A stretch of DNA of 64,000 bases from Candidatus Saccharimonadales bacterium (GCA_038211855.1 JBBQVE010000007.1:53-64052); one strand, 5' to 3'. Positions 6,943 through 37,895 are shown, counted from the first letter of the stretch. Made by a program: numbers and translations. Notes: generated by a model not told the origin, from the sequence alone.

Positions 6943-7166
6943 AAATTATAGCCCTATCATGTCGTCTACACAGCAGACATATTTTTACGCCATTTGAGTA
7001 TGGAAAATGGGTATGCTCATAGTCATTCCAAATTTTTGATAACCGGGGGCACTAAAAAATGTTGTTAAATATGCAACTTAACAGATGTATCGTGATCTGA
7101 GTCATACTACTGATAAACCGTTATAATTGTTATGCTAATTAGTAAGAACCTCAGTTATTCTTGGCT

Positions 7167-7481
7167 ATGAGAGAAGAAGATTACTATAAGCACTACCGTC
7201 GTGAGTATGCCACTCTGCACAGAGAGCGTTTTAGACCGACCACTCAGCACAATCCCCAACCCCAACAAGTACCAGCACCACAACTGCATTCAAACCCAAA
7301 CAAACGAAAAGTTCACACTATTGGCGAACTCCTTACTAAAAAATCCCTTATTCCCCGCAGTTTTAGATTGGCATACTGGGATTTTAAAGCTTACCGCCGA
7401 AGGCATCGCTGGGCTGTCAGGGCTATTAGCGTAGTATTAGTTATCGTTTTACTTGCGGGAATTTTTTTTATAGGTTATTAA
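7167..7481 (+). CDS. Hypothetical basic protein with a C-terminal transmembrane tail anchor
   Basis: Arg/Pro/Gln-rich N-terminus with a single terminal helix AISVVLVIVLLAGIFFIGY. Lies directly upstream of the giant ORF. A TTG at 7161 is an alternative start. Confidence 0.5.
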   Translation: MREEDYYKHYRREYATLHRERFRPTTQHNPQPQQVPAPQLHSNPNKRKVHTIGELLTKKSLIPRSFRLAYWDFKAYRRRHRWAVRAISVVLVIVLLAGIFFIGY

Positions 7482-7518
7482 TGCGCATAAGCATACGGTT
7501 GAATATTCACTTGATGGT

Positions 7519-10500
7519 ATGACGGATTCACTTATTGGCAAACCAAATGTGAAATACGCGAATAAGCTAAAATTTAATCCGAAAAACTCGACCTACAACT
7601 ATAACGAGGGGTTTTCAGCAGCTAAAACTGATTTAAGTGGACCAACGAGTTCGCCAAAATTCACTGCACAGTTTGGTGACGGAAAAGAATACACCGCAAA
7701 AGTTACCGACGTCATAAATGATGTGAGTGTTTCTTTTCAGCCTAAGTTTCAACTTTACATGCCACGCCAAGACGCAAATCGAGTTGTATACCCACTGGTC
7801 GGTCTAGATGCAGTAAAAGTCTACACACTTGGTGCAAGTGCCGCAAAAGACGACATTGTACTGCGTAGTTTTCAAGGTGACGAGCTACGCTTTGACTACA
7901 ATCTCATCCTGTCTAGTGGTCTAGAACCTCGAATTGAGACCGACGGTTCACTTGGTGTTTACGGCCCTGCGGCTGCACTACTTGGAAACGTCACTACAAC
8001 GACCGATACTGATGCGAAGCTTTTGGAAAATGCACGTCAAAATGCCAAAAAGGATCGGATCATTTTTACGGTACCTGCTCCGTTTATTGTTGAATCAGGC
8101 AAAAAGACAACGAGCGCCAAGGCTTGGTTCACGTTGGATGGCAAGACACTAAGCGTGCATGCGTCTCGACTCAAAAGTGCGACCTATCCACTTAGCATTG
8201 ACCCAAGTGTGTACATCGAAACAGCGGCGAAGTTCATGCGTGGCAATAATGAGAGCAATATAGATTTTGATGTTACGAATGAACTAATTCAAAAAAGCCA
8301 TACGACGGGTGCCCGTATTGATAATTGGACGGGCACAATTTCTCAGGCGTATAGCACGTGGGATCAAGGCACAGCTGTCGCTGGTGGTTACATATATTCG
8401 GTAGGTGGTCAGCAAGTTTATAGTAAAACGTATACAACGGTTGGCGCCGACACATTTGTAGTTCCTGCTGGAGTTACTAATGTCACTGTAAAAATGTGGG
8501 GTGGAGGCGGTGGATCGGCCGCAGGTGCTGCGTCTGCCGCAGGAGGTAATGGCGGTGGCAGTGGCAATGCAACGGGCATAATTAGTGTATCGGCAGGAGA
8601 AACACTCAATGTATATGTCGGTGACGGTGGCGGTGGCGGTATTTATAGTGCAGGTGGTAGTGATGCCGGTGGCGGTGGCGGTGGACATACAAGTATTATT
8701 AGAAGCTCAACGCCTCTCATAATTGCAGCCGGTGGCGGTGGCGGTGGCGGTGCACGTGCAGCACTTGGTGGTGGCGGTGGTGACACAACAAGTGGCGTTA
8801 CGGGTACATCGGTAGGTAACGGTCACGGTGGCGGTGGCGGTACCGCTAGTGCAGGAGGCACCGCTGGAACTGGTGGCAACAACAACGGAAGTAACGGAGG
8901 CTCACTTTTAGGTGGTGCTGGTGCTGATGGACGTAGCTCACAAGGCACCGACGGCTCAGGGGCATCGGGGGGATTACCTACAGGAGGAGCTGGAGGATTG
9001 GCAAACGTAAACACAACTCGAGCCGGTGCGGGTGGTGGTGGCAGTGGTTATTATGGTGGCGGCGGCGGAGGGGCTTCGAGCAGTACAGGCACGGCTGCTG
9101 GTGGTGGAGGCGGAGGCGGTTCGAGCTATATAGCTGCAGGTGCAACAGCGCCTTCTTCAACCGCTGGCTCTGGTACAACACCGGGGAATTCGAGTGATTC
9201 AGTACGTGGTACCGCAGGTGATGGCGCAACCGGAGCTGCAGCACTTACTGATGGTACCACCGGAAAAAGCGGCTTCGTTTTAGTCACGTATTCTATATCT
9301 GGAAATTCATCAGTAACGACTGCGAGCGTCTATTGGGCGCAGTTTAATGCAACGACAAACGCCATACAAAGCCCTAATCCGGGTAATGGAATATGCTCAG
9401 GGTGGTGTACCAACAGTGTGTACGATCTGCCAGAAGCGAGGCGTGGATTTTCACTTGTCGCCTACAATGGATTTTTATATGCCATGGGTGGATTAAATGA
9501 TACGGGAACACGCCGGTCTACTGTATATATTGCTAAAATCGGTGCTAACGGAGAGCCGCAGCTTTGGCACCCATCTGGAGGCACTCCTGTCTTTTGGTAT
9601 ACAGATAGCGGCCTTAATGGCGCAACAGCGCGAAGTTACTTTGCTGCTGCCGCTTACAACAATCGCATGTACGTACTTGGTGGGCAAACAAACGCCAGCT
9701 CCGGCGGAGTAATGACGGTAGTTGAAGCAGACATTAGCCCGACTGGCGCCCTGGGTAGCTGGACGGCGACTGGTATGCAGGCACTCCCTTCGGCCCGGCA
9801 TAGCCATACAGTAGAAATTTATAACGATACAATGTATATTCTTGGAGGAAATTCGTCTGGAACGCTCCAAAATACCACGTATTACTCCAAAATTAACAAC
9901 GATGGGACCATGAATGCGTGGGTGCAAACTGAAAACTTCGCTACAGCGCGCAGCACTATGGGTTCCAGTTATTCGACAATTTGGGGGGCGTACATGTATA
10001 TGGCCGGCGGTTGTACTGCGGTGAATGGGAGTGGTTATTGTACAGGCATAGCCTCGGATGTACAACTTGCAAGTATAAATGCAGATGGGAGTCTGTCTGA
10101 GTGGAATACCGTATTAGGACTCACGAACGACCGAATTGGTCACAGCCTGCTTGCCTGGCAAAATGGACTCTATCGAGTAGGTGGCTGCTCGTCTCAAGAT
10201 GGGACGACTGGGCTTTGCACCAACCCTTCTTCATCAATAGATTATGGTGTTATTAACAAAGATGGTGAAGCAAGTACGGTGGCCAACTCAGTCTCAAGTG
10301 GTACAGCGCCATGTTCGGGTGCTAGTCCTCATAATTGTGAGCTACCGAGTGTCTCTATTATCGGAAATGTACTCAGCGGTAGCGCTATCTTCAACGGCTA
10401 TTTGTATGTGTGGGGTGGGTGTTCAAATACGACATCAGGTTGTGGCACAGTTTCGAGTGGAGTGATCTATACATCTATAGGGAGTGATGGTTCGCTCACC

Positions 10501-12915
10501 AAGCCAGCTTCGTGCGGTTCATGGTCGACCGTAGACTCGTATTGCTACAACGCAACTTCCCTGCCTGGGTCTGTTGGCGCGCCCGGAGTTGCCGTCTTTA
10601 ATGGTACTATTTATTCTGTTGGTGGCTTTACGGCGGCCGGTAGCGTGAATAAGATATATTATGCACAACCTAGTGCAACCGACGGTTCAATTAGTTCATG
10701 GAGTAGTGTTATTTTAAGTAGCGGTGCTGGCAATATAGGCGCCGAAGATGTTGCCTATACCTATAGTTTTGCGAGGGCTAATCCAGCATCTGTTGGCAGC
10801 ACGCCCGGTAATCTATATATCTTAGGCGGTTGTACCGGCTCAGCTGGGATAGGCTGTAGTGGTTATACAGGCGGCGTTTATAAGTGCACAATCAGTACAT
10901 CCGGCGTTCCGGCGGCATGTAGCCAGAATCCTAGTGGCTCAAATCAACAGTTACAGATTGGCTCTGTCACAGATGGATTCGGGCACTCTGCTGGTACTGG
11001 ATTGGGTGCAATGGCCGGCACACTCTATGCTAATTATATCTACCTCATAGGCGGGTTATCGTCGAATGCAACATACGGTCTCGATTTGAAAGTTTCGCGC
11101 TATGCAAAAATAGACAACAACAATAATATTGTGGCTGTGAGTGGTAGCGCCTGGATAGAATCATCGAACCTCACATACTATGGTCGGCGGCGTGGTTCGG
11201 GGTTTGGCTATAATGGGTACCTCTATGTTGTTGGTGGATATGATGGGTCAAGCGGTGGCGGAGGCATTTTGGCCGATATCGAGTTTGCAAAAATTGATGT
11301 GAGCGATGGCAGCATTGGTGCATGGAAAGTTTCTACAGTTAATATCAATCAACGCTGGGGGCTAAATCTCACAGTTTCTAATTCTTACGCCTACGTTATT
11401 GGTGGCTGCATTACTGGTAACGCACCGACCTGCTCCAGTGGTGGCCAGACTAATTCCATACAAACCTTTCAGGTCTACAACAATGATAGTGGTGCAATTA
11501 AGAATATCACCGCTGGGAATTCACTTGGCGTTAATAGAATTGGTGGGAGCTCAACAGTGATGAATGGCTATATTTACTATGCAGGCGGTTGTACCGACAT
11601 GGCTTGTACGACTCCATCGACGGCAACGTACTATGCGCCTATTGATGCTTATGGTGTAGTCGGCTCTTGGTCTTCCGGTGGCACACTGCCAACAGCTGTC
11701 TCATGGGGTAAGCTCGTCAACGCCGGCGGCACTCTTTACTACGCGGGCGGCCAAACTGGAGCATCCAATGCCACCGCTGTAAGTACTATATATTTCACCT
11801 CAGCAGTCACCTCAGGGAATCCTACGTGGAACGGTACAGCAGCTACAAAGGGTATCGGAGATACTGGAAGCGGCGCGCAAACACGTACCGAATTTGGAGT
11901 CGCAACGTGGAATGATCGAATATATGTTACGGGAGGGTTTAGCTCGAGTGGTGCTGCACAATCTAGTGTCTTCTCAAGCGCCTCACTCGCGGCAGGTGGC
12001 AATATCACAGCTAACTGGACTTCTACTACTGGATTTAATTTTGCCCGTGGCGGCCACACAACAATCGCGTATGCTAATAATCTGTATTTACTCGGCGGCT
12101 TTGACGGTACAAACTATTTAAATAACGTACAGTACACCCAAATTAATGGTGATGGTACCGTTGATGCATGGACATACACAACGAGCCTCGATGGACCTAT
12201 CCGTGATGCTGATGGATTTGCTGCGAACGGCTACATGTACCTTGTTGGTGGGCGTTCAGCCGCTACCACATGCGCGCCAAATACATTCATTGCACCTATT
12301 AGCGCAAATACGACCATAGCGACAGGTAACAATCCAACAGGAATAGGTGAATGGTTCGAAACAAACGTTCGCTACACGGGCGACAGATTCGGGGCTGCAG
12401 TGTCTTATTCAAACGGTCGACTCATCCTTATAGGTGGGGGCTGTACTAGCTTTGTGAGTTCCGGTGACAGAATGTACTATTCAACGCTTAAATCTCAGCC
12501 ACAAATAGCAAAATACTCTCGACTCATAGATACCGATAAGGATGTGTTCCCAACCTACTGGCTCATGAATGGGCTCGACAATTCGACGGGTGCTGAATGG
12601 TACATGCGTTACAGATCATCGACAGAATCTGCTGCATCCTGGGGCCAAGAAACTAATTTTGGAAAGGTGACACTTGGCACCCCTGAAACTTACAATACGC
12701 TCGATGGGAGCGGCACCAATACAAACTTTGCTCGCTACTACTACCTATCAGTTAATATCGATAGCTCGCAGGCATTCGGCTATCCAGAAGATGTAACGAG
12801 AGGCCCGACCATCGATGACCTGACTCTTTTCTACACCAGTAATCCTTCTGGCCGGCTTCATCATGGCAAGACATTTACAGGGGGTATCCAACAGCCTTTC
12901 GATACGCCATTTTAA
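7519..12915 (+). CDS. Giant (1798 aa) protein with a glycine-rich domain and multiple Kelch beta-propellers; putative surface/adhesion protein
   Basis: Uninterrupted 5.4-kb ORF. Gly-rich block at about aa 312-594 (VVPAGVTNVTVKMWGGGGGS...TLNVYVGDGGGGG...GFVLVTYS). There are 17-18 Kelch-like blades (YNGFLYAMGG, YNNRMYVLGG, YNDTMYILGG, FNGYLYVWGG, YNGYLYVVGG, WNDRIYVTGG, ANGYMYLVGG and others). Confidence 0.85.
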   Translation: MTDSLIGKPNVKYANKLKFNPKNSTYNYNEGFSAAKTDLSGPTSSPKFTAQFGDGKEYTAKVTDVINDVSVSFQPKFQLYMPRQDANRVVYPLVGLDAVKVYTLGASAAKDDIVLRSFQGDELRFDYNLILSSGLEPRIETDGSLGVYGPAAALLGNVTTTTDTDAKLLENARQNAKKDRIIFTVPAPFIVESGKKTTSAKAWFTLDGKTLSVHASRLKSATYPLSIDPSVYIETAAKFMRGNNESNIDFDVTNELIQKSHTTGARIDNWTGTISQAYSTWDQGTAVAGGYIYSVGGQQVYSKTYTTVGADTFVVPAGVTNVTVKMWGGGGGSAAGAASAAGGNGGGSGNATGIISVSAGETLNVYVGDGGGGGIYSAGGSDAGGGGGGHTSIIRSSTPLIIAAGGGGGGGARAALGGGGGDTTSGVTGTSVGNGHGGGGGTASAGGTAGTGGNNNGSNGGSLLGGAGADGRSSQGTDGSGASGGLPTGGAGGLANVNTTRAGAGGGGSGYYGGGGGGASSSTGTAAGGGGGGGSSYIAAGATAPSSTAGSGTTPGNSSDSVRGTAGDGATGAAALTDGTTGKSGFVLVTYSISGNSSVTTASVYWAQFNATTNAIQSPNPGNGICSGWCTNSVYDLPEARRGFSLVAYNGFLYAMGGLNDTGTRRSTVYIAKIGANGEPQLWHPSGGTPVFWYTDSGLNGATARSYFAAAAYNNRMYVLGGQTNASSGGVMTVVEADISPTGALGSWTATGMQALPSARHSHTVEIYNDTMYILGGNSSGTLQNTTYYSKINNDGTMNAWVQTENFATARSTMGSSYSTIWGAYMYMAGGCTAVNGSGYCTGIASDVQLASINADGSLSEWNTVLGLTNDRIGHSLLAWQNGLYRVGGCSSQDGTTGLCTNPSSSIDYGVINKDGEASTVANSVSSGTAPCSGASPHNCELPSVSIIGNVLSGSAIFNGYLYVWGGCSNTTSGCGTVSSGVIYTSIGSDGSLTKPASCGSWSTVDSYCYNATSLPGSVGAPGVAVFNGTIYSVGGFTAAGSVNKIYYAQPSATDGSISSWSSVILSSGAGNIGAEDVAYTYSFARANPASVGSTPGNLYILGGCTGSAGIGCSGYTGGVYKCTISTSGVPAACSQNPSGSNQQLQIGSVTDGFGHSAGTGLGAMAGTLYANYIYLIGGLSSNATYGLDLKVSRYAKIDNNNNIVAVSGSAWIESSNLTYYGRRRGSGFGYNGYLYVVGGYDGSSGGGGILADIEFAKIDVSDGSIGAWKVSTVNINQRWGLNLTVSNSYAYVIGGCITGNAPTCSSGGQTNSIQTFQVYNNDSGAIKNITAGNSLGVNRIGGSSTVMNGYIYYAGGCTDMACTTPSTATYYAPIDAYGVVGSWSSGGTLPTAVSWGKLVNAGGTLYYAGGQTGASNATAVSTIYFTSAVTSGNPTWNGTAATKGIGDTGSGAQTRTEFGVATWNDRIYVTGGFSSSGAAQSSVFSSASLAAGGNITANWTSTTGFNFARGGHTTIAYANNLYLLGGFDGTNYLNNVQYTQINGDGTVDAWTYTTSLDGPIRDADGFAANGYMYLVGGRSAATTCAPNTFIAPISANTTIATGNNPTGIGEWFETNVRYTGDRFGAAVSYSNGRLILIGGGCTSFVSSGDRMYYSTLKSQPQIAKYSRLIDTDKDVFPTYWLMNGLDNSTGAEWYMRYRSSTESAASWGQETNFGKVTLGTPETYNTLDGSGTNTNFARYYYLSVNIDSSQAFGYPEDVTRGPTIDDLTLFYTSNPSGRLHHGKTFTGGIQQPFDTPF

Positions 12916-12959
12916 TGTATTGGGCACTTATAATCAAAAAATTATTGTCGTATTGTCGG

Positions 12960-12968
12960 TGTTAAAAT
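12960..12968 (+). promoter_or_regulatory. Extended -10 (TGTTAAAAT) 6 nt before the GTG start at 12975
   Basis: TGn plus TAAAAT, then GTGTAG, then GTG. Confidence 0.35.
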
Positions 12969-12974
12969 GTGTAG

Positions 12975-13598
12975 GTGGAGAACATATTCAAGTACGGTGT
13001 TTTAATTGATGCTAACCGTGGTGATGTTATTGCAGCGAGCGGATTCGTTTATATGACAATAGCTGGCGGAGTAGGACAATTCGCGCGAAGTAAAAGCAAT
13101 GATAGACTCATCTTTGCCTACAAAGCAGGGGAAATATTTCCATTAAAACCAATCGAGCTTAGTAGCTCGACGGGTCGTACATATATTTATAAAGCGCTCA
13201 ATAGTGTAAAACTACATCGCATAACAAACTCTCAATTTAAATCTATGCTAAAACAACAAGATAATACAATTAAATTTTTAAAATATGCACTACATATCAT
13301 TCAACAACAAACTGAACGTATAGATAACCTTCAAGAAGAACAGATCGTACAGCGACTACTTGAGCGGCTCGTATATATCGCCAATCGATTTGGGATTCAG
13401 GATGGGGATTCATTCATCATTTCGATCCCTATGTCGCACGTTGATCTTGCCACATCAATAAACACGACTCGTGAAACAGTAAATAGGCATATGAAAAACT
13501 TTGAAAAATTAGGTATTTTATCATTGCGCAAAAAGATAATACGCATCAAATCAATTCAACAAGTAAGAGATATGCTTACGGCGCTAAATAAGCAGTGA
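12975..13598 (+). CDS. Crp/Fnr-family transcriptional regulator
   Basis: N-terminal cNMP-binding-like beta-roll region and C-terminal HTH (MSHVDLATSINTTRETVNRHMKNFEKLGIL). GTG start. Confidence 0.75.
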   Translation: MENIFKYGVLIDANRGDVIAASGFVYMTIAGGVGQFARSKSNDRLIFAYKAGEIFPLKPIELSSSTGRTYIYKALNSVKLHRITNSQFKSMLKQQDNTIKFLKYALHIIQQQTERIDNLQEEQIVQRLLERLVYIANRFGIQDGDSFIISIPMSHVDLATSINTTRETVNRHMKNFEKLGILSLRKKIIRIKSIQQVRDMLTALNKQ

Positions 13599-13690
13599 CC
13601 TAATTTTGCGGATCTGCAGGTTTTGGTGGTGCGTGTATCAAAACTGGCGTGACGCTAATTATCTTATCGATCAGAGGCCAAGAAGATAGA

Positions 13691-13728
13691 TTGAACGGGT
13701 TCAACATTTGCGCTTACAATGTGCAAAT
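13691..13728. promoter_or_regulatory. Two adjacent palindromes, candidate Crp/Fnr-type operators upstream of the GT2 synthase gene
   Basis: TTGAACGGGTTCAA (13691-13704; perfect TTGAA-N4-TTCAA, one base per half-site away from the FNR box TTGAT-N4-ATCAA). ATTTGCGC-N7-GTGCAAAT (13706-13728; one mismatch). Confidence 0.4.
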
Positions 13729-13916
13729 ATAGGTTAAGAGCAATGACTCATTTTTCATGAAATAAGGGAGGTGTCGGCTCGAAGCATTGCTTTATATAAC
13801 CTAGTTGATAATAATTCTAACTTATGTTAATATATGTTTATTAAAAATGCACTTGGAGTTATTCAGATATACGTAAGAAAGTGTGTCGCTACGGCTCTTA
13901 CTTTTGAATTCATTGT

Positions 13917-15677
13917 ATGGCCAAACCAACAACAGACAAGATATATGACTATAAGTTATTTAGCAAGTTAGCGGGTTCCGTTACAGCAGTAAAAACTTTA
14001 CCATACACCGTACAATATAGGCGCCTTTCGAACAGGAAGGATGCCTTCAAGACTATTTTACTAGCTACTGCCAGCATTGGCGTAGAGGTATGGTTTTTGA
14101 CTTGGTTGCTATGGTCATTGCTTGCACCGATCTGGAGCAACAATGCCAAGCTGGGTACCGTTTTTATTGCGCTACTGGTATGCATTTTTGTGATAGAGAG
14201 TTTTCGCTTACTAAGTATTACATCCTTTGCCCTCTCTGCCCTTATGTCAAAAAATCCTGTTCCAGTCCGTCCATCACCGCGACAACGAATTGCCTTTACT
14301 ACCATGATTGTGCCTTCGAAAGAACCGTTTGAAATCGTAAAAAAAACTTTACTGGCTATGAAACAGGTTACCTATAACGGACAAATCGACATATGGCTGT
14401 TGGATGAGGGGAATGATCCGGCCATCAAATCGGCTTGTAAGACGATGGGAGTAAATCATTTCAGCCGGAAAGACATAGAAAAATGGAACCAGCCAAATGG
14501 TCGATTTAAAGCCAGGACCAAACATGGGAACGTGAACGCCTGGCTTGTAGCCAAGGGACATGCCTATGACTACGTGCTCTCCGTTGACTCAGATCACCAA
14601 CCTTTGCCTAGCTACGCCCAGCGTATGCTTGGCTACTTCCGAGACCAAGATGTCGCTTTTGTTGTGGGTCCGCAAGTCTACTCCAATCTGGAATCGGTTA
14701 TTACCAGAGGTGCTGAATCTCAGTCCTATGTCTTTCAAGCAACCATACAGCGGGCTGCCAATAGCTACAATGCCGCTATGTTTGTAGGTACCAACCATGC
14801 CTACCGGGTTGCCTCAGTCCTAGATATTGGTGGCTTTCAGGATTCAATTACTGAAGATTTACTGACGAGCCTGACGATTCATGGTCGGCGCAACCCAATC
14901 ACCAAGCATCACTGGAAGTCCGTGTATACTCCTGACGTATTAGCAATTGGCGAAGGGCCATCATCTTGGACCGATTACTTCTCGCAACAGTTACGCTGGT
15001 CGAGAGGTGCCAACGACGTCTTACTTAGACATTTTTTGGGTCGCTACTTGAAGCTACCTTGGCGAGCCAAACTTCACTACGGACTTATTATTTGGTGCTA
15101 CCCCGCGGCTGGATTTACTTGGTCAATAGGCATCGCCGTAAGTATGTTGTACCTTTTCTTGGGTACGACTGGAGTCGCCTTGCATGATAAAACATGGTTA
15201 GCTCTGTTCGTTGATGTTTTAGCCACTCAGTTATTGCTCTACAGCTGGCTGCGTCGTTATAACGTCAGCCCTCACGATAAACAAGGGTCGTTTGGTAGTG
15301 CCGGCATCTTCTTTTCGATCTTTGCAGCTCCCATCTATGCCTACTCACTGTTCAGCGCCCTCACCCGTAGGAAATGCAATTTTGTGGTAACTCCCAAAGG
15401 CGACAGCACTTCACCAGATAATTGGCGTACATTTAAATATCACCTTGGATGGGCACTGCTGATTGCGGGATTTTTAGTCTATAGCATCATAATCGGTAAC
15501 ACGCATCCTAATGTAAAAATTTGGTGCGTTTTGGCGCTAATATCCTGCTTGACACCCGTTGCTATGTGGCAAATTAGTTGCTGGCATTCGACTAAGCTGC
15601 GACTCTTTAGGTGGAATCCGTATCGTAAAACCCTCAGCCGATCTTTTTTGGAAAGATTTGAGAGAGTTGATTCATGA
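13917..15677 (+). CDS. Processive family-2 glycosyltransferase, cellulose-synthase-like (CslA-like), without a PilZ domain
   Basis: Multi-TM protein with DEGND, SVDSDH, ITEDL (TED) and QQLRWSRG (QxxRW) motifs. Confidence 0.85.
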   Translation: MAKPTTDKIYDYKLFSKLAGSVTAVKTLPYTVQYRRLSNRKDAFKTILLATASIGVEVWFLTWLLWSLLAPIWSNNAKLGTVFIALLVCIFVIESFRLLSITSFALSALMSKNPVPVRPSPRQRIAFTTMIVPSKEPFEIVKKTLLAMKQVTYNGQIDIWLLDEGNDPAIKSACKTMGVNHFSRKDIEKWNQPNGRFKARTKHGNVNAWLVAKGHAYDYVLSVDSDHQPLPSYAQRMLGYFRDQDVAFVVGPQVYSNLESVITRGAESQSYVFQATIQRAANSYNAAMFVGTNHAYRVASVLDIGGFQDSITEDLLTSLTIHGRRNPITKHHWKSVYTPDVLAIGEGPSSWTDYFSQQLRWSRGANDVLLRHFLGRYLKLPWRAKLHYGLIIWCYPAAGFTWSIGIAVSMLYLFLGTTGVALHDKTWLALFVDVLATQLLLYSWLRRYNVSPHDKQGSFGSAGIFFSIFAAPIYAYSLFSALTRRKCNFVVTPKGDSTSPDNWRTFKYHLGWALLIAGFLVYSIIIGNTHPNVKIWCVLALISCLTPVAMWQISCWHSTKLRLFRWNPYRKTLSRSFLERFERVDS

Positions 15678-17254
15678 AACACATAACTAGAACTTTTAAG
15701 TCCCGTAAGTTTTATTATGGGTTCGCTATTTTTGTAGTAATACTGGTTAATATAAATGCTCTTGTGGAGCCGGTGTACGCCAAAATCGAATATATTTATT
15801 CTCGCCAACAATCTGTTATAGAAAAAGATGGCCGCTGGGATACTCTTAATTACAAATCTCCCGTTCGGTCCGTGCATGCCGCACTGCTCCATACTGGCAA
15901 AGTTTTATTGATTGCAGGTTCTGGAAATGATAAAACCCAGTTTGATGCAAAGTCATTCCGTACGGTACTTTGGGATCCAATTACTGGCAAATTTAAAGAA
16001 GTAGTAACACCTTGGGATGCCTTTTGTGCCGGCCATGTCTTTTTGCCAGACGGTAAGTTGCTGGTTGCTGGCGGGACCAAAGGCTATGAAGACCTTACCA
16101 AAAATCCTCGCGTGAACTACAGCGGCTTAAAAGATTCCTACGTGTTCAATCCAGATACAGAATCTTATGAAAAAGTATCTGATATGCAGTTTGCTCGCTG
16201 GTATCCAACGCTCGTGAACCTGGGTGATGGAAGAGTTTTGGCGGCGGCTGGACTTGATGAAAACGGAAAAAATTCGAAGGGTCAGACTGAAATATACGAC
16301 CCTGCGACGAAGAACTGGACGTACAAACCGGCATTGAAGCATGTATTTCCAACATATCCATCATTGATACTGACGAGTGATGGTCGGTTATTTTATACTG
16401 GTTCAAGCCAGGGCTACGCTTCCGGAACTGCCAGTATGACCCCTGGATTATGGAACCTCAAAAATAATCAGTTCCAGGTCGTAAAAGGTTTGCCAGAGCC
16501 ACTCCGTACCGACAACAGCGCCTCAGTGCTCTTACCGCCGGCACAGAGTCAAAAGGTACTGCTCTTGGGTGGTGCTACAGCTGGAGACTCGCCGGTAACG
16601 GAAACAACCGATCGTACTGCAATCGTTAACTTGAGCGATACAACAGATCCAATGTATACTCAGGGCCCAAGTCTGCACAACGCCACTCGTTACCCAGGAG
16701 TTGTTATATTGCCCGATGATACAGTCCTGGAAACGGGAGGCTCCAAAGGATACCGTAATTTCAATTTACACTCGGCTGAAATATATCACCCCGATACCAA
16801 TGCACTTACTCCAGCTGCTTCCCCACGAGTCGGTCGCGATTACCACGCTGAAGCTATTTTGTTGCCAGATGGTCGAGTTGCTACTTTTGGCTCTAATCCA
16901 ATCGACAATACTTTTGAAATGCGCATAGAAATTTACTCACCTTCATATATGTTTAAGGGCGAGCGTCCGACAATAAAGAGCACAACGACAGAGATGCCGC
17001 GTGGTGGGACAGTCACACTACAGACTTCAAATCCCGACGATCTTAAAACTGCTAAACTTATCCGACCAAGTGCCGTCACTCATGTGACTGATGTCGAGCA
17101 ACGTTCGATTGATCTGCCGTTCACAAAAACAACTGGCGGTATACAGGTGACGGTACCCGAGAATCGTAATCTTGTTCCGTCAGGCTGGTACATGGTCTTT
17201 GTCACGAATAAACAGAACATCCCGTCGACTTCTTACTGGGTACATGTTCCTTGA
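15674..17254 (+). CDS. Membrane-anchored galactose-oxidase/glyoxal-oxidase-type radical copper oxidase (GlxA-like)
   Basis: ATGA overlap with the upstream gene. N-terminal TM helix and seven Kelch-type blades. Residues FCAGH (Cys), ARWYPT (Tyr), RDYHAE (Tyr-His) and VTHVTD (His) match the copper/Cys-Tyr cofactor positions of the family. C-terminal DUF1929-like beta domain. Confidence 0.8.
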   Translation: MKHITRTFKSRKFYYGFAIFVVILVNINALVEPVYAKIEYIYSRQQSVIEKDGRWDTLNYKSPVRSVHAALLHTGKVLLIAGSGNDKTQFDAKSFRTVLWDPITGKFKEVVTPWDAFCAGHVFLPDGKLLVAGGTKGYEDLTKNPRVNYSGLKDSYVFNPDTESYEKVSDMQFARWYPTLVNLGDGRVLAAAGLDENGKNSKGQTEIYDPATKNWTYKPALKHVFPTYPSLILTSDGRLFYTGSSQGYASGTASMTPGLWNLKNNQFQVVKGLPEPLRTDNSASVLLPPAQSQKVLLLGGATAGDSPVTETTDRTAIVNLSDTTDPMYTQGPSLHNATRYPGVVILPDDTVLETGGSKGYRNFNLHSAEIYHPDTNALTPAASPRVGRDYHAEAILLPDGRVATFGSNPIDNTFEMRIEIYSPSYMFKGERPTIKSTTTEMPRGGTVTLQTSNPDDLKTAKLIRPSAVTHVTDVEQRSIDLPFTKTTGGIQVTVPENRNLVPSGWYMVFVTNKQNIPSTSYWVHVP

Positions 17255-17274
17255 AATACGCTGCAACGTGGTTA

Positions 17275-17700
17275 CTATTTAGGTGTGACGTCTAGGGATA
17301 GATGTGCCCTGTCGCGCAAGTGATCATGCACGGTAAAACGACCGACCTGCGTGGCCTTAATTTCTAAAAACTCTTCAGGCCCTAAGGTTTGCATAGTAAA
17401 ACCAGAATAGTCAATGTGCTGGTCGTGGGTTCCAAAGGCTACGGAGTACTCGCTCGGTCCTGTGTTGCTGATTTTTAGCGTATCACAGCGCGGCATTTGG
17501 ACGTGATTAGGCACGAAGCTATCATCAATCAATGAAATGCTGTGAACCGTACCGCCGTCCGGACAATCTATACTATTCGCATGGCTATTTAAGCGGTTGG
17601 AAATTCCAAATATAACTAAAGCGCAGGCAGACAGGCCAACAAAAACGTCGAACCATAATCGCTGTCTGATGTGACGAGTTTTTTTCATTTTTTTAGTCAT
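17275..17700 (-). CDS. Membrane-anchored cupredoxin-like domain protein (function unknown)
   Basis: Start chosen at MTKKMKK, which avoids overlap with the GH6 gene. One TM helix, then a beta-rich domain (FVPNHVQMPRCDTLKISNTGPSEYSVAFGTHDQ...GRFTVHDHLRDRAH) resembling EfeO-type cupredoxin-like domains. Confidence 0.5.
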   Translation of the reverse strand: MTKKMKKTRHIRQRLWFDVFVGLSACALVIFGISNRLNSHANSIDCPDGGTVHSISLIDDSFVPNHVQMPRCDTLKISNTGPSEYSVAFGTHDQHIDYSGFTMQTLGPEEFLEIKATQVGRFTVHDHLRDRAHLSLDVTPK

Positions 17701-17720
17701 ATCTACTACTTTTAACGTGC

Positions 17721-18863
17721 TTATTGCCGCAATTCTTGTGGCCAACGGTTCACCAAGCCAAGCGCATAGTCCGGCCACCAAGTACCAGCAGTCGGACCGC
17801 CGAAGCACTTATTCCGATCGGGATCCTGACCATCAGATTCCCCCGGAATTTTAATATAAAGGTAAGCATCGGTTAATGGCCGACCTGTATTTGTCGTTGG
17901 GTGATTCCCAAGCGCTCTATCCGGCGGATTGCACCATGAAAAGTCATCATAGACTGGGTTTTTATAGGGTCCAGCACCATTTCGGGAGGTGTCGATTACA
18001 AAATGCTTGCCATTAAGACGTGCAGCAAGCAGAGCGCCGTAACGCTCACTATTGTTGGTAGTCTGAAAGTTTGAGACATTCAGACTGAAGCCGTCAGCCT
18101 GATCGATACCGGCTTTTTTGAGTCGGTCAGCTAGTTGATCGGTGTCCTGAACCCAGGCGCTATTACCGGCATCGATATATGCCTTTACGCCCTTTTGGGC
18201 TTTAAGTGTTGTCGTGGCATAGCGGATTGCTTGGTAAGTCTGATCCCGCTTGTGATCTGTTAAGCAAGGCTGACCGTCATTCATATTTTCATCGATCCCA
18301 GCGAGGGCATCGGGTTCAATTATGAGTATTGCTTGGTCACTCCCTACGAGCCCAGCCAGTTTGTTAATAAACTGTTTGTAACTGTCAAAACTAGACGCTC
18401 CTCCCGCAGAATAACTTCCGCAGTCGCGATCGGGAATATTGTATATAACCAGAACCGGCGTTGCCTTTGCCTGTCTCGCTTCGCTTAAGTAGCTGCCGAG
18501 TGATTGTAGACTGTCGTCAGTGGTCAACCATCGTGCCATTGGTTCAGAAGCTAGTTTGGACATCGCAGCGGCCTGCTGAGGTTTTGAACTACGCCACTCA
18601 ATTGCTTGTTGTGCGGCGCTGGAATGAGGATCAACGAACAAGCGACTATCGGCCGAAAGATTTGACGCTTGATCAACGGATGGTGTTAGGTCTGAGCTCT
18701 CTGCCCTCGTCTTATCATTGTGAGCAGTTGTATGAACCTTATTCCTATCTACTATAGCCAGCACCAAACTGACTATGAGCAGAGAGCTCACGGCTACCAG
18801 TGCCATTCGGCGCTGATTGCTGTGTTTATCATTTCGACTAGTTGATCGGTAACGGTGACGCAT
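17721..18863 (-). CDS. Glycoside hydrolase family 6 (endo-beta-1,4-glucanase-like, CslZ-like), N-terminally anchored
   Basis: VLVIYNIPDRDCGSYSAGG and ILIIEPDALAG match the two GH6 hallmark motifs. TM helix near the N-terminus. Confidence 0.85.
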   Translation of the reverse strand: MRHRYRSTSRNDKHSNQRRMALVAVSSLLIVSLVLAIVDRNKVHTTAHNDKTRAESSDLTPSVDQASNLSADSRLFVDPHSSAAQQAIEWRSSKPQQAAAMSKLASEPMARWLTTDDSLQSLGSYLSEARQAKATPVLVIYNIPDRDCGSYSAGGASSFDSYKQFINKLAGLVGSDQAILIIEPDALAGIDENMNDGQPCLTDHKRDQTYQAIRYATTTLKAQKGVKAYIDAGNSAWVQDTDQLADRLKKAGIDQADGFSLNVSNFQTTNNSERYGALLAARLNGKHFVIDTSRNGAGPYKNPVYDDFSWCNPPDRALGNHPTTNTGRPLTDAYLYIKIPGESDGQDPDRNKCFGGPTAGTWWPDYALGLVNRWPQELRQ

Positions 18864-19062
18864 GAATGAATGGGGTCCTGTTGCCGTCCAGACGGCATAT
18901 TGCGTTCTTTCTATGCATATTTTACAATGAATATTAGAATATTACAACCATAAGGTATTAACCTTTTCTGACTCTTAGATTATATAAGTATCCGAAAAAA
19001 GCACGAGTTTCCACAAAAAAGGCGTATATTTAAACTATAAGCTTTTAATGAAAGGGTACCAC

Positions 19063-19386
19063 ATGAGTAATCGTAAGAATCTCCCCCAAGACGGCTTCAG
19101 CGCCGTAGAGGGGGTGTTGCTCGTTATTATCATAGCAGTCGTAGCTGGAGCAGTCTTGTTTGTACATAATAAGAACCAGAAAACTGCTACCAATGACGCC
19201 ATCACCACAGCAGCCGTCGCCACAACCGCTGCCAAAGCCAGTGGGATCGATCAACAGAATATTCAAGAAGCTCAGGACGAGGCCGCCATCAATAGTACGC
19301 ATGAATCAAGTGAACAAACTGATGCCATCAGCGCCAACGCTTCGGCCACAGATATGGGAGGAGCCTACAATGAATCGAATTTCTAA
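19063..19386 (+). CDS. Type IV pilin/pseudopilin-like protein
   Basis: Class III signal: MSNRKNLPQDG|FSAVEGVLLVIIIAVVAGAV, with Gly at -1, Phe at +1 and Glu at +5. AAGGG Shine-Dalgarno sequence precedes the ATG at 19063. Confidence 0.75.
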   Translation: MSNRKNLPQDGFSAVEGVLLVIIIAVVAGAVLFVHNKNQKTATNDAITTAAVATTAAKASGIDQQNIQEAQDEAAINSTHESSEQTDAISANASATDMGGAYNESNF

Positions 19387-20134
19387 CCTAGTCCGCACTG
19401 CGGGTCTAAGTATCGGGCTTATCGGTGTGGCATCAATCGTCCCCGCAACGACCTACGCAGTAGCTTCTGCCAAGACAACTAGCTCTTTCTGCACGAATCT
19501 ATCTACAATTGTCACAAAGGTAAACAGCGGCGTCACAGACCGTAGCAGCAAGCATGATGTCGCTCGCACCAAGCGTACCACCGACATTGCTGCTCACCGT
19601 ACAAAATGGGATTCTGATTTGGCTGCTAACCGCACCAAGTGGGATGCCCTACGGACTGCCAATTTCTCAAAGTTAGAGGCTAAAGCCACAACCGATAACC
19701 AAAAAGCCGCCGTTAGCACCTACGTAGCCAGTATTAAAGCAGCTATTATCACTCGACGCAGTGCCGATGATGCTGCCCGTGATACCTTCCGTGCAGGTGT
19801 AGATGCCTCCATTGCAGCACATCAGTCAACGATTAGTGGCCAGATTGACACGTTCAAAGCATCGGTTGCCAGCGCAATTGCGACCGCAGAAACTGGCTGT
19901 ACGACTAACGCCGCAAATGGCCCTGCCCTACGCACTGTCTTCATGTCGAGCCTCAAAACTGCCCGTACTACATTCGTCAGTGCTCGCAAAGATGACGCTA
20001 AGCTTTCCACGGATGTAAAAGCGCTCTCTGACGCCAAAAAAGCCGCCATTGCCACACATGAAGCAACCTTCAAGACAGCCACCGCTGCTGCCCGCACGAC
20101 GCTCAAAGCAGCTTTTCCAAAAGCTGATATCTAA
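19370..20134 (+). CDS. Secreted alanine-rich helical repeat protein, unknown function
   Basis: Start chosen at MNRISNLVRTAGLSIGLIGVASIVPATTYAVASA (signal peptide). Overlaps the pilin stop by 17 nt. Repeats of the type AAHRTKWDSDLAANRTKWDALR. Confidence 0.6.
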   Translation: MNRISNLVRTAGLSIGLIGVASIVPATTYAVASAKTTSSFCTNLSTIVTKVNSGVTDRSSKHDVARTKRTTDIAAHRTKWDSDLAANRTKWDALRTANFSKLEAKATTDNQKAAVSTYVASIKAAIITRRSADDAARDTFRAGVDASIAAHQSTISGQIDTFKASVASAIATAETGCTTNAANGPALRTVFMSSLKTARTTFVSARKDDAKLSTDVKALSDAKKAAIATHEATFKTATAAARTTLKAAFPKADI

Positions 20135-21129
20135 GCGAGGTCAGGTGCAATAGTGAGCTTGCTTCTCTGGTCTTTTAGTCTGTTGGCTTCTTTTAGCGAC
20201 AATCCACCAAGAATTCGAACAAACTGTAGAACACTCTTGCGTGCACTTTCACCACTTTTACTTAGCTCGGTATTGTTTTGTATCTGAAGTTTTCTGATAA
20301 CCGGCTGCAAGATATGATTCACGTGTACCCTTGAATCATAGATGCCAACAATCGCGATTTGACTACTTTTTGTATCGAAGTCAGTGATGCCTGTACCTGG
20401 CATTTCAAAATTCTTAATAATTCTAAATAGTGATTCCATCGCTTTATCTGGCAGAATTTTGAAGGCTTCCATAGCTAGCCCAAGATAAAACTTGTGATGC
20501 CGACTTTCGTCGCCCATCACCTTCACAATACCGCCCGCCACTTTCAAGACGGCAGCTCTATCCACATCACTGCTAAGAAGGTTAGCTTCGGCTACCATTC
20601 TGGCTGCAGTCCGTTTATGCGACACGAGAGTCGCCAATTCCTGAATAGCAACGTACATAATACCGTCTAAGGTTCTTTCGAAGCGAGGTACGACACCGCC
20701 AGAAACCTGCTTCATTCGGTCGTCTTCTAGTAAGACCGGATCCACAAGACGCATAGTCATTAGACCCGTTCTGATGACTTCAGCATGTCTGCCTTCCTCA
20801 GCAGTCCACCTCAACCCCCATTTCCCCCACACACTTTCACCACCAAATAAATTATCAATCTCGTCAAAGTAATATGGTAAATTATCTTCGGTCAGTAAAT
20901 TTACGAACAGCGCACTAGTTAGCTCTGGGGAAAGGAGCGACTCTTCAGGCGTCCAGAGATAATCAGGATCAAAATCTTTGCCGTATGACCAAGGGGTTTC
21001 TTTGTGTGGGTACCATATATGTTTTTCGCTGAGCACCATATGCTCATCATAAAGTCTGTTTGCAGCTGGTTCTAATTGTGCAAGCAACTCAAGATCGGGC
21101 CTCTCACTTGCGTTTTCAATGGTTGACAT
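20131..21129 (-). CDS. Soluble di-iron acyl-ACP desaturase family protein (DesA1/DesA2-like)
   Basis: Two E..RH iron-binding motifs: WTAEEGRHAEV and MGDESRHHKFY. Confidence 0.8.
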   Translation of the reverse strand: MSTIENASERPDLELLAQLEPAANRLYDEHMVLSEKHIWYPHKETPWSYGKDFDPDYLWTPEESLLSPELTSALFVNLLTEDNLPYYFDEIDNLFGGESVWGKWGLRWTAEEGRHAEVIRTGLMTMRLVDPVLLEDDRMKQVSGGVVPRFERTLDGIMYVAIQELATLVSHKRTAARMVAEANLLSSDVDRAAVLKVAGGIVKVMGDESRHHKFYLGLAMEAFKILPDKAMESLFRIIKNFEMPGTGITDFDTKSSQIAIVGIYDSRVHVNHILQPVIRKLQIQNNTELSKSGESARKSVLQFVRILGGLSLKEANRLKDQRSKLTIAPDLA

Positions 21130-21156: not shown

Positions 21157-22767
21157 CTACAATTTATTGACGCGGATCATATGGGCTTTGGCAAATTCTT
21201 CGGTCATGCCAATTTTTTTACCGGGGTTGAAGATATTTTGCGGGTCAAACAGATTCTTGGTGGCTTTAAACAGCTCGATAACATCGGGGCTAAACATCGA
21301 TGGCAGGAATGGAGTACGAATCAGGCCGTCGTTGTGGTCGACGCTCATGCTGCCGCCAAAGGCGAAAACCAAGTCATAACTACGACGCGCCAGTTCAAAA
21401 ATCTCATCTGGTGCAGTTGGTTTTTCCATATTAATGAGTGGAATCAGACGAATGCTGCCGTCACCGATGTGCCCCGCATTGGTATAGATCATGTCGTAAT
21501 CGCTCAAAATAGCTTCCCAGGCCGCCAAAAACTCGCCGTAATGATCGACGTTGATGATTGTATCTTCAATAAATGGCACTGCCCGAGTATGTGGTGCCGG
21601 ATGCGCTTTTAATAGTGCGTAACTGGCGCGGCGAATCTGCCAATGTGCTTCAGCTTCGTTATCGTCTTCGACATAATGAACTTTGAACTTCTTACGTTCC
21701 AAAGCGGCTTTGCAAACATCCGCATAGTGGTCGGTCTGATCTTTGGTGTGCTCAATAAACTGCGCCATCAACACAACTTCATGACCTTTACTAATGCCGG
21801 CAATCGCTGCCATCTCGGGCATATATTTTTCGGCCAGTTCGTAGGTGTAGTGATCATAGAGCTCGAGTCCTTCCGGATGACTGGCGGTAATGGTCTGTAA
21901 AGCAACTGCTAGTTGATCGAGATTATTAATAGGAATAACTAGCATCCGACGGTGATGCAGCTTCTCAACCAGACGTAGTTTTACAGCCGTCACCATGCCG
22001 AGCGTGCCTTGCGAGCCAACAATCAATTTCGCCACGTTAAAGTCATCTTGTTGCTTATTGATGACGTGCCACAGTTGATAGCCGGCGGCATTCTTGCGGA
22101 CTTTCGGACGCGCCGCTTCAAGCAAATCCCAGTTGTCTTCGATTAATTTATCGATCTCACGGTATATATAGCCTTCGTAGGAGTCTTGGCTGGCACGGCG
22201 GGCAAATTCGTCAGCATCAATCGAGCCGAATTCGTATTCGTTGCCGTCAGAACAGATCATGCGAACGGCTATGACATTATCAACCGTGGCGCCAAAACGA
22301 ATGCTCTTTTCGCCGCTAGCGTTGTTGCCGACCATGCCACCAATCGTGCAGAGGTCTTTACTGCTGGTATAGGGCGCAAACAACAATTTTTGGGGCGTTA
22401 ACTGTGCCTCAACATCGCGGTAATACGTCCCCGCTCCCACCCAGACACTTTTTTCTTTATGATCAACTTCGGCCATCCAGGTAAAGCCTGGCTTCATATC
22501 AACGGAGACACTTTCGGTCAGTGACCCACCAGACATACAGGTACCTGCCGCCCGTGCCGTCAAACTGACGTTCTGGCCACTTATTTTCATTTGGCTGGCA
22601 TTTTTGACGAGCGTCTTTAGATCCTCATCATCTTTTGGCACAGCAACAAACGCCGGCATCACCTGAAAAATACTGGCGTCGACACTGGCTTCTGTCCTGC
22701 TTGTTTCATCGGTTTTAATTTCGCCGCGGAAATTCTGCCGTAACTGATTAAGGACCCACTCTTCCAT
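21157..22767 (-). CDS. FAD-linked oxidase (GlcD/D-lactate dehydrogenase-like)
   Basis: FAD_binding_4-type N-terminus (TARAAGTCMSGGS, GGMVGNNASGEKS) and a C-terminal FAD-oxidase domain ending in IFNPGKK. Confidence 0.75.
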   Translation of the reverse strand: MEEWVLNQLRQNFRGEIKTDETSRTEASVDASIFQVMPAFVAVPKDDEDLKTLVKNASQMKISGQNVSLTARAAGTCMSGGSLTESVSVDMKPGFTWMAEVDHKEKSVWVGAGTYYRDVEAQLTPQKLLFAPYTSSKDLCTIGGMVGNNASGEKSIRFGATVDNVIAVRMICSDGNEYEFGSIDADEFARRASQDSYEGYIYREIDKLIEDNWDLLEAARPKVRKNAAGYQLWHVINKQQDDFNVAKLIVGSQGTLGMVTAVKLRLVEKLHHRRMLVIPINNLDQLAVALQTITASHPEGLELYDHYTYELAEKYMPEMAAIAGISKGHEVVLMAQFIEHTKDQTDHYADVCKAALERKKFKVHYVEDDNEAEAHWQIRRASYALLKAHPAPHTRAVPFIEDTIINVDHYGEFLAAWEAILSDYDMIYTNAGHIGDGSIRLIPLINMEKPTAPDEIFELARRSYDLVFAFGGSMSVDHNDGLIRTPFLPSMFSPDVIELFKATKNLFDPQNIFNPGKKIGMTEEFAKAHMIRVNKL

Positions 22768-35100: not shown

Positions 35101-35111
35101 GCCTCACTATT

Positions 35112-36056: not shown

Positions 36057-36057
36057 T

Positions 36058-37227: not shown

Positions 37228-37313
37228 ACTTGACAGTGTAGCACAAGCATAGTTACAATTACTAGTCACAATTATATATAATTAATTGTAATATAATGTG
37301 TAATGGAGAATTA

Positions 37314-37895
37314 ATGGCAGATTTTAAAAGTTATGTGACGGACTTCGAGTCATTACAGACAATTCCTCAGGCTGACCGCTGGCAACATTACATCGCTAGG
37401 GAACTTTTTATGCAGGTACCGATTACTGAAGATCAGCAGGTATACCGCGAGCCTTTGGTGTCCGCAGAAATACTTTCATCGAAGGGCGTCAGTGTCGAAC
37501 CGATCTGGCGAGACAGCCCTCTTGATGAAGAAGGCGAGGAATATTTACGTTATCTGGAAGACGAGGGGATAAACGACCTGCGCGACAATGTCAGTGACCC
37601 CAGTCAGATCGTACCGCCTCATTCGGCTGCGGCAGCCTGTGATGTTATTTTGCGAGATCATCAAGGAGGAAACGTGGATATGGGCGGCGGTTTTACGCTA
37701 GGCGACGACATCGTCTGGGCAGCATATCCTCACCTTACATCTATCCAAAAAGACAATCGCGCCCTTCTTAGAAACAGTATGCTGCAGGCTGGCTTTGCGC
37801 CTTTAGGAAGCGAATGGTGGCACTATAGGCTACGGCAATCAGGTATGGGCCGCATATTGGGGCCAAGCAAGCGCTCTATACGGACTCTACGATAG
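37314..37895 (+). CDS. M15-family D-Ala-D-Ala dipeptidase (VanX/DdpX-like)
   Basis: H-x6-D (PPHSAAAACD) and EWWH zinc/catalytic motifs. GGAG Shine-Dalgarno sequence 5 nt before the ATG at 37314. Confidence 0.7.
   Translation: MADFKSYVTDFESLQTIPQADRWQHYIARELFMQVPITEDQQVYREPLVSAEILSSKGVSVEPIWRDSPLDEEGEEYLRYLEDEGINDLRDNVSDPSQIVPPHSAAAACDVILRDHQGGNVDMGGGFTLGDDIVWAAYPHLTSIQKDNRALLRNSMLQAGFAPLGSEWWHYRLRQSGMGRILGPSKRSIRTLR

Follow-up and report, generated by a model that had tools for sequence, protein, structure and literature searches.

The 64-kb stretch of DNA from a Candidatus Saccharimonadales bacterium that was analysed here (hereafter the window, in which all coordinates are given) carries a cassette of four genes between positions 13917 and 18863, about 5 kb in length, that potentially encodes the machinery for making a surface glycan. 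The four products are a GT2 glycan synthase, a radical copper oxidase, a membrane-anchored cupredoxin-fold protein and a GH6 glucanase (Table 1). By analogy with described systems, this cassette is probably the real unit in the region and would be the form that the apical-glycan system CslA-GlxA-CslZ of actinobacteria takes in Saccharimonadales. An earlier note on the same DNA had proposed that a 13-kb block, from 7161 to 20134, forms one regulated module that also includes a giant Kelch protein, a Crp/Fnr regulator, a type IV pilin and a secreted Ala-rich protein. Only the GT2, oxidase, cupredoxin and GH6 genes, however, stay neighbours in relatives. All the open reading frames (ORFs) named in that note were found at or near the places it gave, and its gene labels are largely right. 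The closest named homologues belong to Candidatus Saccharimonadales or Saccharibacteria.

Table 1. Position and main characteristics of the cassette genes and of the features next to them.
Feature	Position	Strand	Characteristics
Giant Gly-rich/Kelch surface protein	7161-12915	+	Anchor ORF 7161-7481 (106 aa) and ectodomain ORF 7519-12915 (1798 aa)
Crp-family transcription factor	12975-13598	+	207 aa (181 aa in the NCBI-derived entry); HTH_Crp_2 7.7e-14
Perfect palindrome TTGAAC-GG-GTTCAA, candidate operator	13691-13704		Between crp and GT2 genes; overlaps the -35 of a promoter-like site
GT2 processive beta-glycan synthase, CslA-like	13917-15677	+	586 aa; about 6 hydrophobic segments; Pfam GT2 families
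Radical copper oxidase, short GlxA form	15674-17254	+	526 aa; N-terminal transmembrane helix 13-31
Membrane-anchored cupredoxin-fold protein, putative copper-handling partner	17275-17700	-	141 aa; transmembrane helix 15-33; converges on the oxidase gene
Membrane-anchored GH6 endoglucanase, CslZ-like	17721-18863	-	380 aa; transmembrane helix 20-38; PF01341 1.3e-67
Small prepilin-like protein	19048-19386	+	112 aa; G-FSAVE and hydrophobic helix; low-complexity C-terminal ~65 aa
Ala-rich protein	19370-20134	+	Signal peptide; 254 aa from Met 19370; not conserved beside the cassette

Conservation of the four-gene cassette

Neighbourhoods were fetched around oxidase homologues with 85, 84, 73, 73, 70, 63, 61 and 54% identity, and nine other Saccharimonadales-like lineages were compared with the window (L004, L007, L010/L019, L011, L016, L017, L018 and L031/L032; lineages and loci carry an L number, protein homologues a P number). 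A scan of genome contigs with a single oxidase sequence gave three distant matches only. The loci of the relatives were sorted by their G+C content (GC) into a low-GC, Saccharimonadales-type group and a high-GC group.

In the low-GC loci, the GT2 gene is followed by the oxidase gene, with the genes of a small membrane protein and of a GH6 enzyme alongside. The four genes are kept together in the nine other lineages, and the genes that flank them differ in each. The GT2 gene lies immediately 5' of the oxidase gene in 13/13 low-GC loci and in 34 of the 46 high-GC loci. Of the 14 Saccharimonadales-type loci for which 2 kb or more of sequence is available downstream, 13 have the cupredoxin gene, and so does L009, for which less is available; none of 40 high-GC loci has it. 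A GH6 gene occurs within 4 kb of the oxidase gene in 12 of 15 low-GC loci (two loci of outgroup type included) and in 15/40 high-GC loci. The synthase-oxidase-hydrolase set with its cupredoxin, as the earlier note had recognized it, is a real conserved functional module.

The rest of the 13-kb block behaves differently. When the window proteins were compared by tblastn with 97 loci, no homologue of the giant, the pilin-like protein, the Ala-rich protein or the desaturase-like protein encoded at 20131-21129 was found within about 10 kb of any cassette. The earlier note had itself proposed gene order in related genomes as the check on its module, with scattering as the outcome that would speak against it. 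The single 13-kb module fails this check, as only the four core genes stay neighbours in the nine other lineages, and the supra-locus interpretation is not supported. The giant Kelch, Crp-family, pilin-like and Ala-rich genes are lineage-specific neighbours and not parts of the module. The limits 7161 and 20134 are arbitrary, the flanks being ordinary metabolic and housekeeping genes.

The synthase and the radical copper oxidase

The GT2 protein matches the Pfam family Glyco_trans_2_3 (5e-14) and aligns with BcsA (5EJ1/4HG6) at 1e-22 over residues 46-505, which cover the membrane and catalytic regions. Its six or so hydrophobic segments agree with multiple transmembrane helices, and it bears the D, DxD, TED and QxxRW motifs of processive synthases as LLD163, DSD224-226, TED312-314 and QQLRW357-361. 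No PilZ domain was detected in it with Pfam. An Rfam search of the window found tRNAs only, with no riboswitch upstream of the GT2 gene.

The oxidase gene starts within the end of the GT2 gene, the start and stop codons overlapping by 4 nt (ATGA), and the same overlap occurs in every related locus with called genes, Frankia included. As the earlier note had suggested, the product is a copper oxidase. Profile searches recognized it as galactose-oxidase-like, and an identical sequence is present in the protein collection. It aligns with GlxA of S. lividans (4UNM) with an E value of 2.7e-134, in two blocks between which chain residues ~134-226 are skipped. The skipped residues correspond to domain 2 of GlxA (residues 143-260 in the numbering of PMC11022532), which indicates that the oxidase is devoid of this domain; accordingly, PF21110, the model of the domain 2 beta-barrel, had no match in it, and the protein does not have the three-domain architecture of GlxA. 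Its active site has the composition of a GlxA-type radical-copper site, with C118 and Y177 as the cross-linked pair, W176 as the stacking residue and Y390, H391 and H470 as ligands. All these residues are invariant in 45 homologues and align with the GlxA motifs FCTGH, RWYPT, NYHS and STHVT. The helix at residues 13-31 mirrors the N-terminal helix by which GlxA contacts CslA.

In one relative, the oxidase gene reads as two overlapping ORFs with an apparent frameshift (L031, 9980-11579, and L032, 415-1993); the two loci are independent metagenome contigs of a single lineage.

The GH6 glucanase

The GH6 gene lies on the minus strand, 20 nt upstream of the cupredoxin gene, and converges on the oxidase gene. 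The best structural relatives of its product are endoglucanases, namely Cel6 of M. tuberculosis (1UOZ, 4.9e-59) and endoglucanase E2 of T. fusca (1e-43). The catalytic signatures PxRDC and EPD are found as PDRDC144 and EPDAL183. The GH6 label of the earlier note is confirmed.

The cupredoxin-fold protein

The fourth gene encodes a transmembrane anchor followed by a domain of about 100 aa. Judging from the sequence, its start is most likely at 17700, giving 141 aa, versus the 177 aa implied by a start at 17808; five orthologues align from the Met at 17700, and with this start the gene does not overlap the GH6 gene. A word-indexed homologue search returned the query alone, and a HMMER search of representatives found a family of 354 cluster representatives. 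In this family, 79 of 130 members match PF13473 (Cupredoxin_1), which agrees with the cupredoxin-like label given earlier. An alignment-based AlphaFold2 model of the protein reached a predicted local distance difference test (pLDDT) score of 92.9, compared with only 41.7 for a single-sequence run, and resembles cupredoxins. Its top Foldseek matches were the copper-bound Cupredoxin_1 protein 4HCF, AcoP, EfeO, FtrB and plastocyanins, and the probability was 1.00 for 4HCF, AcoP, plastocyanin and EfeO, in line with a cupredoxin beta-sandwich.

Within the family, C46 and C72 are invariant and D73, H95, H125, D126 and H127 are present in at least 90% of the members. H125-D126-H127 occupies the place of H-C-T in amicyanin, and the His/Cys/His/Met set of a type-1 (blue) site is not present. 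With no Cys at the position of the blue-copper ligand, the protein is not a blue copper protein. A putative His-rich metal site is placed instead at the canonical cupredoxin position, on the basis of conserved residues and the predicted fold. A beta-sandwich whose canonical end carries a metal site of non-blue type would be common to this protein, to PF13473 proteins (4HCF of B. anthracis) and to the cupredoxin domains of EfeO and FtrB; unlike these, it has an N-terminal transmembrane anchor, an invariant Cys pair, an H...H-D-H signature and a fixed place beside a GlxA-like gene, where its role is putative.

The gene, which occurs only in low-GC loci, is in all cases found directly at the 3' end of the oxidase gene. 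It stays there even when it is flipped to the other strand (L018) or when the GH6 gene has moved upstream (L031). Homologues of the copper chaperone-type protein Sco are encoded beside the oxidase gene in four high-GC loci (L012, L020, L090 and L094), and in L051 the distance between the two genes is about 6 kb; none was found in any low-GC locus examined, nor in the window. As the cupredoxin gene stands in low-GC loci where Sco stands in some high-GC loci, the cupredoxin may fill the copper-handling role.

Comparison with known systems

The Streptomyces genes cslA and glxA are coupled in one operon, with a glucanase gene oriented convergently to glxA (PMC3543389). The glucanase CslZ is a membrane-associated GH6 enzyme that helps the glycan to cross the wall, whereas GlxA receives its copper from Sco (PMC9040799). 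The cassette is similar to this cslA-glxA-cslZ system (SCO2836-2838) in that a GT2 gene is coupled to the gene of a membrane-anchored radical copper oxidase on which a GH6 gene converges, and in that the full Cu/Tyr-Cys site and all four synthase motifs are present. A need for a dedicated copper supply is presumably shared as well. The two systems differ in several respects. The cassette oxidase has 526 aa and no domain 2, compared with 645 aa for Streptomyces GlxA; the GH6 enzyme is anchored by a transmembrane helix, whereas CslZ was reported as a lipoprotein; and a membrane-anchored cupredoxin gene lies between the oxidase and GH6 genes. The hosts are also very different, an ultra-small Saccharimonadales bacterium on one side and a filamentous actinomycete on the other.

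The short GlxA-like loci of Frankia and Protofrankia, such as L012 (GCA_900635375.1), also encode an oxidase of ~530 aa without domain 2, which is 50-54% identical to that of the cassette. L012 shares with the cassette the 4-nt overlap between GT2 and oxidase genes and an adjacent GH6 function, but its GT2 protein is longer (766 aa), it has two co-directional GH6 genes, and a SCO1/SenC gene follows the trio where the cassette has the cupredoxin gene instead. Like the cassette, the BcsA-BcsB-BcsZ system combines a processive GT2 synthase bearing the same motifs with a partner that is anchored in the membrane and faces away from the cytoplasm, and with an endoglucanase of its own. The cassette differs from it by the absence of PilZ and of BcsC, by a copper-radical oxidase in place of BcsB as partner, and by a GH6 rather than a GH8 glucanase.

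Proposed function of the cassette

By homology with the Streptomyces system, the polytopic GT2 synthase would polymerise a beta-1,4-glucan (cellulose-like) from a UDP-sugar and thread the chain through the membrane. The coupled, membrane-anchored oxidase would dock on the synthase via its N-terminal helix, serve it as an obligate partner outside the cytoplasm and possibly oxidise the glycan as it emerges. The membrane-anchored GH6 enzyme would trim the glycan or open the wall so that the polymer can reach the surface. The lineage-specific cupredoxin, with its His-rich non-blue site, could supply or hold the copper of the oxidase or exchange electrons with it, and would then be the counterpart, in its job, of Streptomyces Sco. 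A role in surface glycan formation or attachment is a reasonable inference from the Streptomyces counterpart, and the product may be a surface glucan serving adhesion or protection.

Several points weigh against this interpretation. The absence of domain 2 from the oxidase is one of them, and its score of 622.9 bits against the NCBIfam GlxA model NF052501 falls below the cutoff of 800, a shortfall that the missing domain explains. Taken together, these two features make the oxidase a short-form relative and not a strict GlxA equivalog. LpmP and DtpA, both of which act in Streptomyces, were not found in the window, and neither they nor Sco were found near the cassette. The identity of the glycan polymer is debated even in Streptomyces in vivo (PMC11022532), and the Saccharimonadales members are known here from sequence alone. 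As for the cupredoxin, the protein of the window itself gave no direct Pfam or PDB sequence match, its proposed metal site is deduced from conserved residues and a predicted fold, and a function as redox partner, or in the service of a different copper enzyme, is just as conceivable.

Origin of the cassette

A neighbour-joining tree of 118 oxidases placed the Saccharimonadales-type sequences in one deep clade. In a smaller tree, rooted with galactose oxidase (GO)-like proteins without an adjacent GT2 gene, this clade was monophyletic in 188/200 bootstraps and sister to long-form GlxA in 139/200; the high-GC sequences were monophyletic to the exclusion of Saccharimonadales in only 2/200. Both trees were built by neighbour-joining alone, and most of their taxa are labelled by GC content only. 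The GC of the cassette, 0.45-0.47, matches that of the rest of the window. In the trees, the Saccharimonadales oxidases form one old clade within a radiation of high-GC sequences. Trees and GC content fit a single ancient acquisition, with vertical inheritance since then, from a donor of high GC that was probably actinobacterial.

In a literature search that covered few subscription journals, GlxA, CslA, cellulose synthase and GH6 were not connected with Saccharibacteria or Patescibacteria in any paper.

The Crp-family gene and the single-regulon hypothesis

An unlikely alternative, that of the earlier note, is that the whole region from 7161 to 20134 is one attachment regulon under Crp control, in which the glycan machinery acts together with a giant adhesin and with the pilin-like and Ala-rich proteins. 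In its favour, all the products, the regulator excepted, are membrane-anchored or secreted, and the crp gene is separated from the giant gene upstream by 59 nt and from the GT2 gene downstream by 318 nt. The encoded protein is a Crp-family regulator, as had been proposed. It aligns with NtcA at 1.6e-07 (NtcA residues 45-212) and has the C-terminal helix-turn-helix after a barrel and a dimerisation helix; the barrel is N-terminally short and has no cNMP_binding Pfam match. The protein contains no Cys, hence no Fnr-type cysteines, and its recognition helix, RETVNR, resembles that of CRP.

The perfect palindrome in the spacer between the crp and GT2 genes is of the FNR/FixK type, TTGA-N6-TCAA. 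This motif occurs twice in the 64 kb, both times between genes, the second site (6575) lying in the spacer upstream of the anchor ORF of the giant. Such a count is at chance, though, since 1.37 are expected and 38/100 shuffles reach 2, and the motif is absent upstream of the GT2 gene in relatives. It was consequently rejected as proof of regulation and is kept as a lead. CRP-type sites, TGTGA-N6-TCACA, which the recognition helix would call for, are not enriched in the window (19 observed versus 28.8 expected). As a separate observation, 5 of 8 near-matches to TTGAA-N4-TTCAA fall in the first 8000 nt of the window.

The comparison with relatives argues further against a single regulon. The crp gene adjoins the cassette in this genome only and is not beside it in most relatives, which places it outside the conserved cassette. 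In three lineages, a Crp-family gene was found at no more than 10 kb from the cassette; that of L031/L032 (25% identical, E 4e-14) is 1.4 kb downstream and that of L004 is 8 kb upstream. A loose association is possible on this basis, although the linkage across lineages is weak. No gene order beyond the four core genes was conserved in any of the nine other lineages, giant homologues occupy a block of their own beside ParA, the giant gene of the window is frameshifted and the pilin label is weak (see below).

Other roles for the cupredoxin and the glucanase

That the cupredoxin serves a respiratory heme-copper oxidase or general copper homeostasis, its place by the GlxA-like gene being incidental, seems quite improbable. 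Such a role would agree with the presence of heme-copper oxidase (cox) operons a few kb from the cassette in L007 and L016, which also counts against the function proposed above. Streptomyces Sco, moreover, serves cytochrome oxidase in addition to GlxA. On the other hand, the cupredoxin gene adjoins the oxidase gene in all Saccharimonadales-type loci with sufficient sequence, those without cox genes within 10 kb included, it has followed the oxidase gene through the two rearrangements described above, and the 64-kb window contains no cox genes.

It is very improbable that the cassette is catabolic, with an unrelated GT2 protein and with the GH6 enzyme and the oxidase attacking cellulose- or chitin-like glycans, external or of the host, to feed or to enter: GH6 enzymes are classical cellulases, copper-radical oxidases do act on carbohydrates, and extra glycanases lie near the cassette in L007 (GH8) and L010 (a GH5 cellulase and a polysaccharide lyase), but the GT2/oxidase overlap in every locus with called genes, a GH6 protein that lacks a carbohydrate-binding module and shares its membrane anchoring with CslZ and with synthase partners of the BcsZ type (PMC9040799), and the genetic requirement of the Streptomyces trio for glycan deposition all speak against it.

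Neighbours of the cassette in related genomes

The genes flanking the cassette in the relatives are diverse. They encode a diacylglycerol kinase and a CHASE3 histidine kinase in L004; an amidase/SLT protein and a GH8 enzyme in L007, with the cox operon ~4 kb upstream; a GDSL lipase and a short-chain dehydrogenase/reductase (SDR) in L010; a histidine kinase and an amine oxidase in L011; a glyoxalase and a dCache kinase in L016, with cox genes downstream; and an RNA ligase and UvrD in L017. The cox genes occupy 1-4610 in L007 and 10950-13743 in L016, so that two copper- and oxygen-dependent systems, cox and the glycan cassette, stand side by side in these loci. Histidine kinases of differing type were observed at or near the cassette in L004 (13509-15866, CHASE3), L011 (6190-8097, plain HisKA) and L016 (1342-3393, dCache/PAS); where these three relatives have a histidine kinase, the window has its Crp-family gene. 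The UvrD/PcrA helicase gene downstream of the cassette in L017 (13466-16711) carries an intein, as indicated by an Intein_splicing match.

The giant Kelch protein and its split gene

The 1798-aa ORF upstream of the crp gene matches the Kelch families PF24681 (2e-21) and PF01344 (7e-16), in agreement with the earlier label of Kelch giant. The same note had seen Kelch propellers in both the giant and the oxidase. A generic fold is indeed common to both proteins, but there is no specific similarity between them (BLASTP of the oxidase against the giant, best E = 1.2), and shared Kelch repeats were ruled out as a tie between the two.

The 106-aa ORF in front, previously described as a separate tail-anchored protein, encodes the part of the giant that comprises its cytoplasmic tail and transmembrane anchor, and a frameshift has detached it from the remainder. 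The homologues P0128 and P0144 start with a cytoplasmic tail of ~80-90 aa and one transmembrane helix, followed by a region matching the start of the 1798-aa ORF, which has no signal or transmembrane segment of its own. When frame 0 of the window (to 7478) is joined to frame 1 (from 7480), the product is colinear with the N-termini of both homologues. Frame 1 is open from 7474 and frame 0 meets a stop at 7479; one extra base at 7474-7478 thus parts the anchor from the ectodomain. A length error in the T8 homopolymer was rejected as the cause, since T7 and T9 both run into stops, and the loss of one base at 7474-7478 restores the frame. The giant gene is either broken in this genome or mis-assembled.

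Homologues of the giant are 50-68% identical to it and mostly ~1800-2150 aa long, and those with a name are labelled Saccharimonadales, Saccharibacteria or Patescibacteria. They belong to a separate block, which in L013 and L015 has the order IleRS, L21, a second giant (Pfam-poor, 1364-1446 aa), the Kelch giant, a ~270-aa protein and ParA. In L014, the block consists of a 2053-aa giant, the Kelch giant, a ~258-aa protein, an extra 1869-aa Peptidase_S74 protein and ParA, with a further Kelch paralogue of 1636 aa upstream. ParB follows ParA in L014 and L015. Residues ~330-590 of the giant (window 8500-9300) form a Gly-rich block in the window copy and in P0144. In P0128, an unrelated segment that is not Gly-rich lies in its place, preceded by the conserved N-terminal region and followed by the Kelch arrays. 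The middle module of the giant may thus be a swappable cassette.

The pilin-like and Ala-rich proteins

The type IV pilin of the earlier note does show a GFSAVE motif followed by a hydrophobic helix, but the label stands on this motif alone. No pilin or N_methyl Pfam family matched the 112-aa protein, even at E<=10, and its match to an NCBIfam pilin model was weak (16 bits against a cutoff of 138). No pilus machinery is encoded among the genes of the window, and the protein, which had no tblastn match in the 97 loci, is not conserved beside the cassette. For the Ala-rich protein, the ORF and the signal peptide were confirmed and the start was corrected: judged on its sequence, the ORF most likely begins at 19370, with the Met of a signal peptide. 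The protein could be assigned to no family.

Other genes of the window

The rest of the window is mostly housekeeping in nature, with TrmD, S16, RNase III, NusB, LeuRS, LigA, UvrC and a Ddl/Mur cluster. The first 8000 nt have a GC of 0.355-0.40, compared with 0.45-0.56 in the remaining window, and contain a tRNA-Gln gene and the genes of a 6-phosphogluconate dehydrogenase-like dehydrogenase, a photolyase-related DPRP protein and an SDR. On the minus strand, at 21157-22767 and 53779-55419, lie the genes of two paralogous FAD-linked oxidases (FAD_binding_4 and FAD-oxidase_C), the former next to an acyl-ACP desaturase-like gene (20131-21129). A peptidoglycan-related cluster at 33706-39467 includes genes of a polysaccharide deacetylase, a class IV (D-amino-acid) aminotransferase, a D-Ala-D-Ala ligase, a VanX-like M15 dipeptidase and a Mur ligase. 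Just after a tRNA-Ala gene, in the GC-richest part of the window (0.52-0.56), lies a 748-aa ORF with a weak BNR/Asp-box match (43047-45293).

Biological significance

Saccharimonadales are ultra-small bacteria, and those in culture live as epibionts of Actinobacteria. It is conceivable, though doubtful as a whole, that an ancestor of the Saccharimonadales took over the actinobacterial apical-glycan machinery once, kept it through extensive genome reduction and shuffling, and added a new type of membrane-anchored non-blue cupredoxin as a dedicated copper partner of the oxidase, the surface glucan being a main determinant of attachment to hosts or surfaces.

The more restricted interpretation, a four-gene cassette related to CslA-GlxA-CslZ, would extend to a second phylum a system so far described as unique to streptomycetes and a few actinomycetes. 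The natural minimal oxidase without domain 2 bears on the role of this domain in GlxA, and the cupredoxin family, with its 354 cluster representatives, becomes a candidate copper partner of radical copper oxidases. In these shuffled genomes, runs of surface genes should not be read as operon-like super-modules without the support of synteny. The way in which Saccharibacteria build their surface and attach to their hosts is poorly understood, and a conserved, oxygen- and copper-dependent glucan synthase cassette would be a concrete candidate for a part in it.

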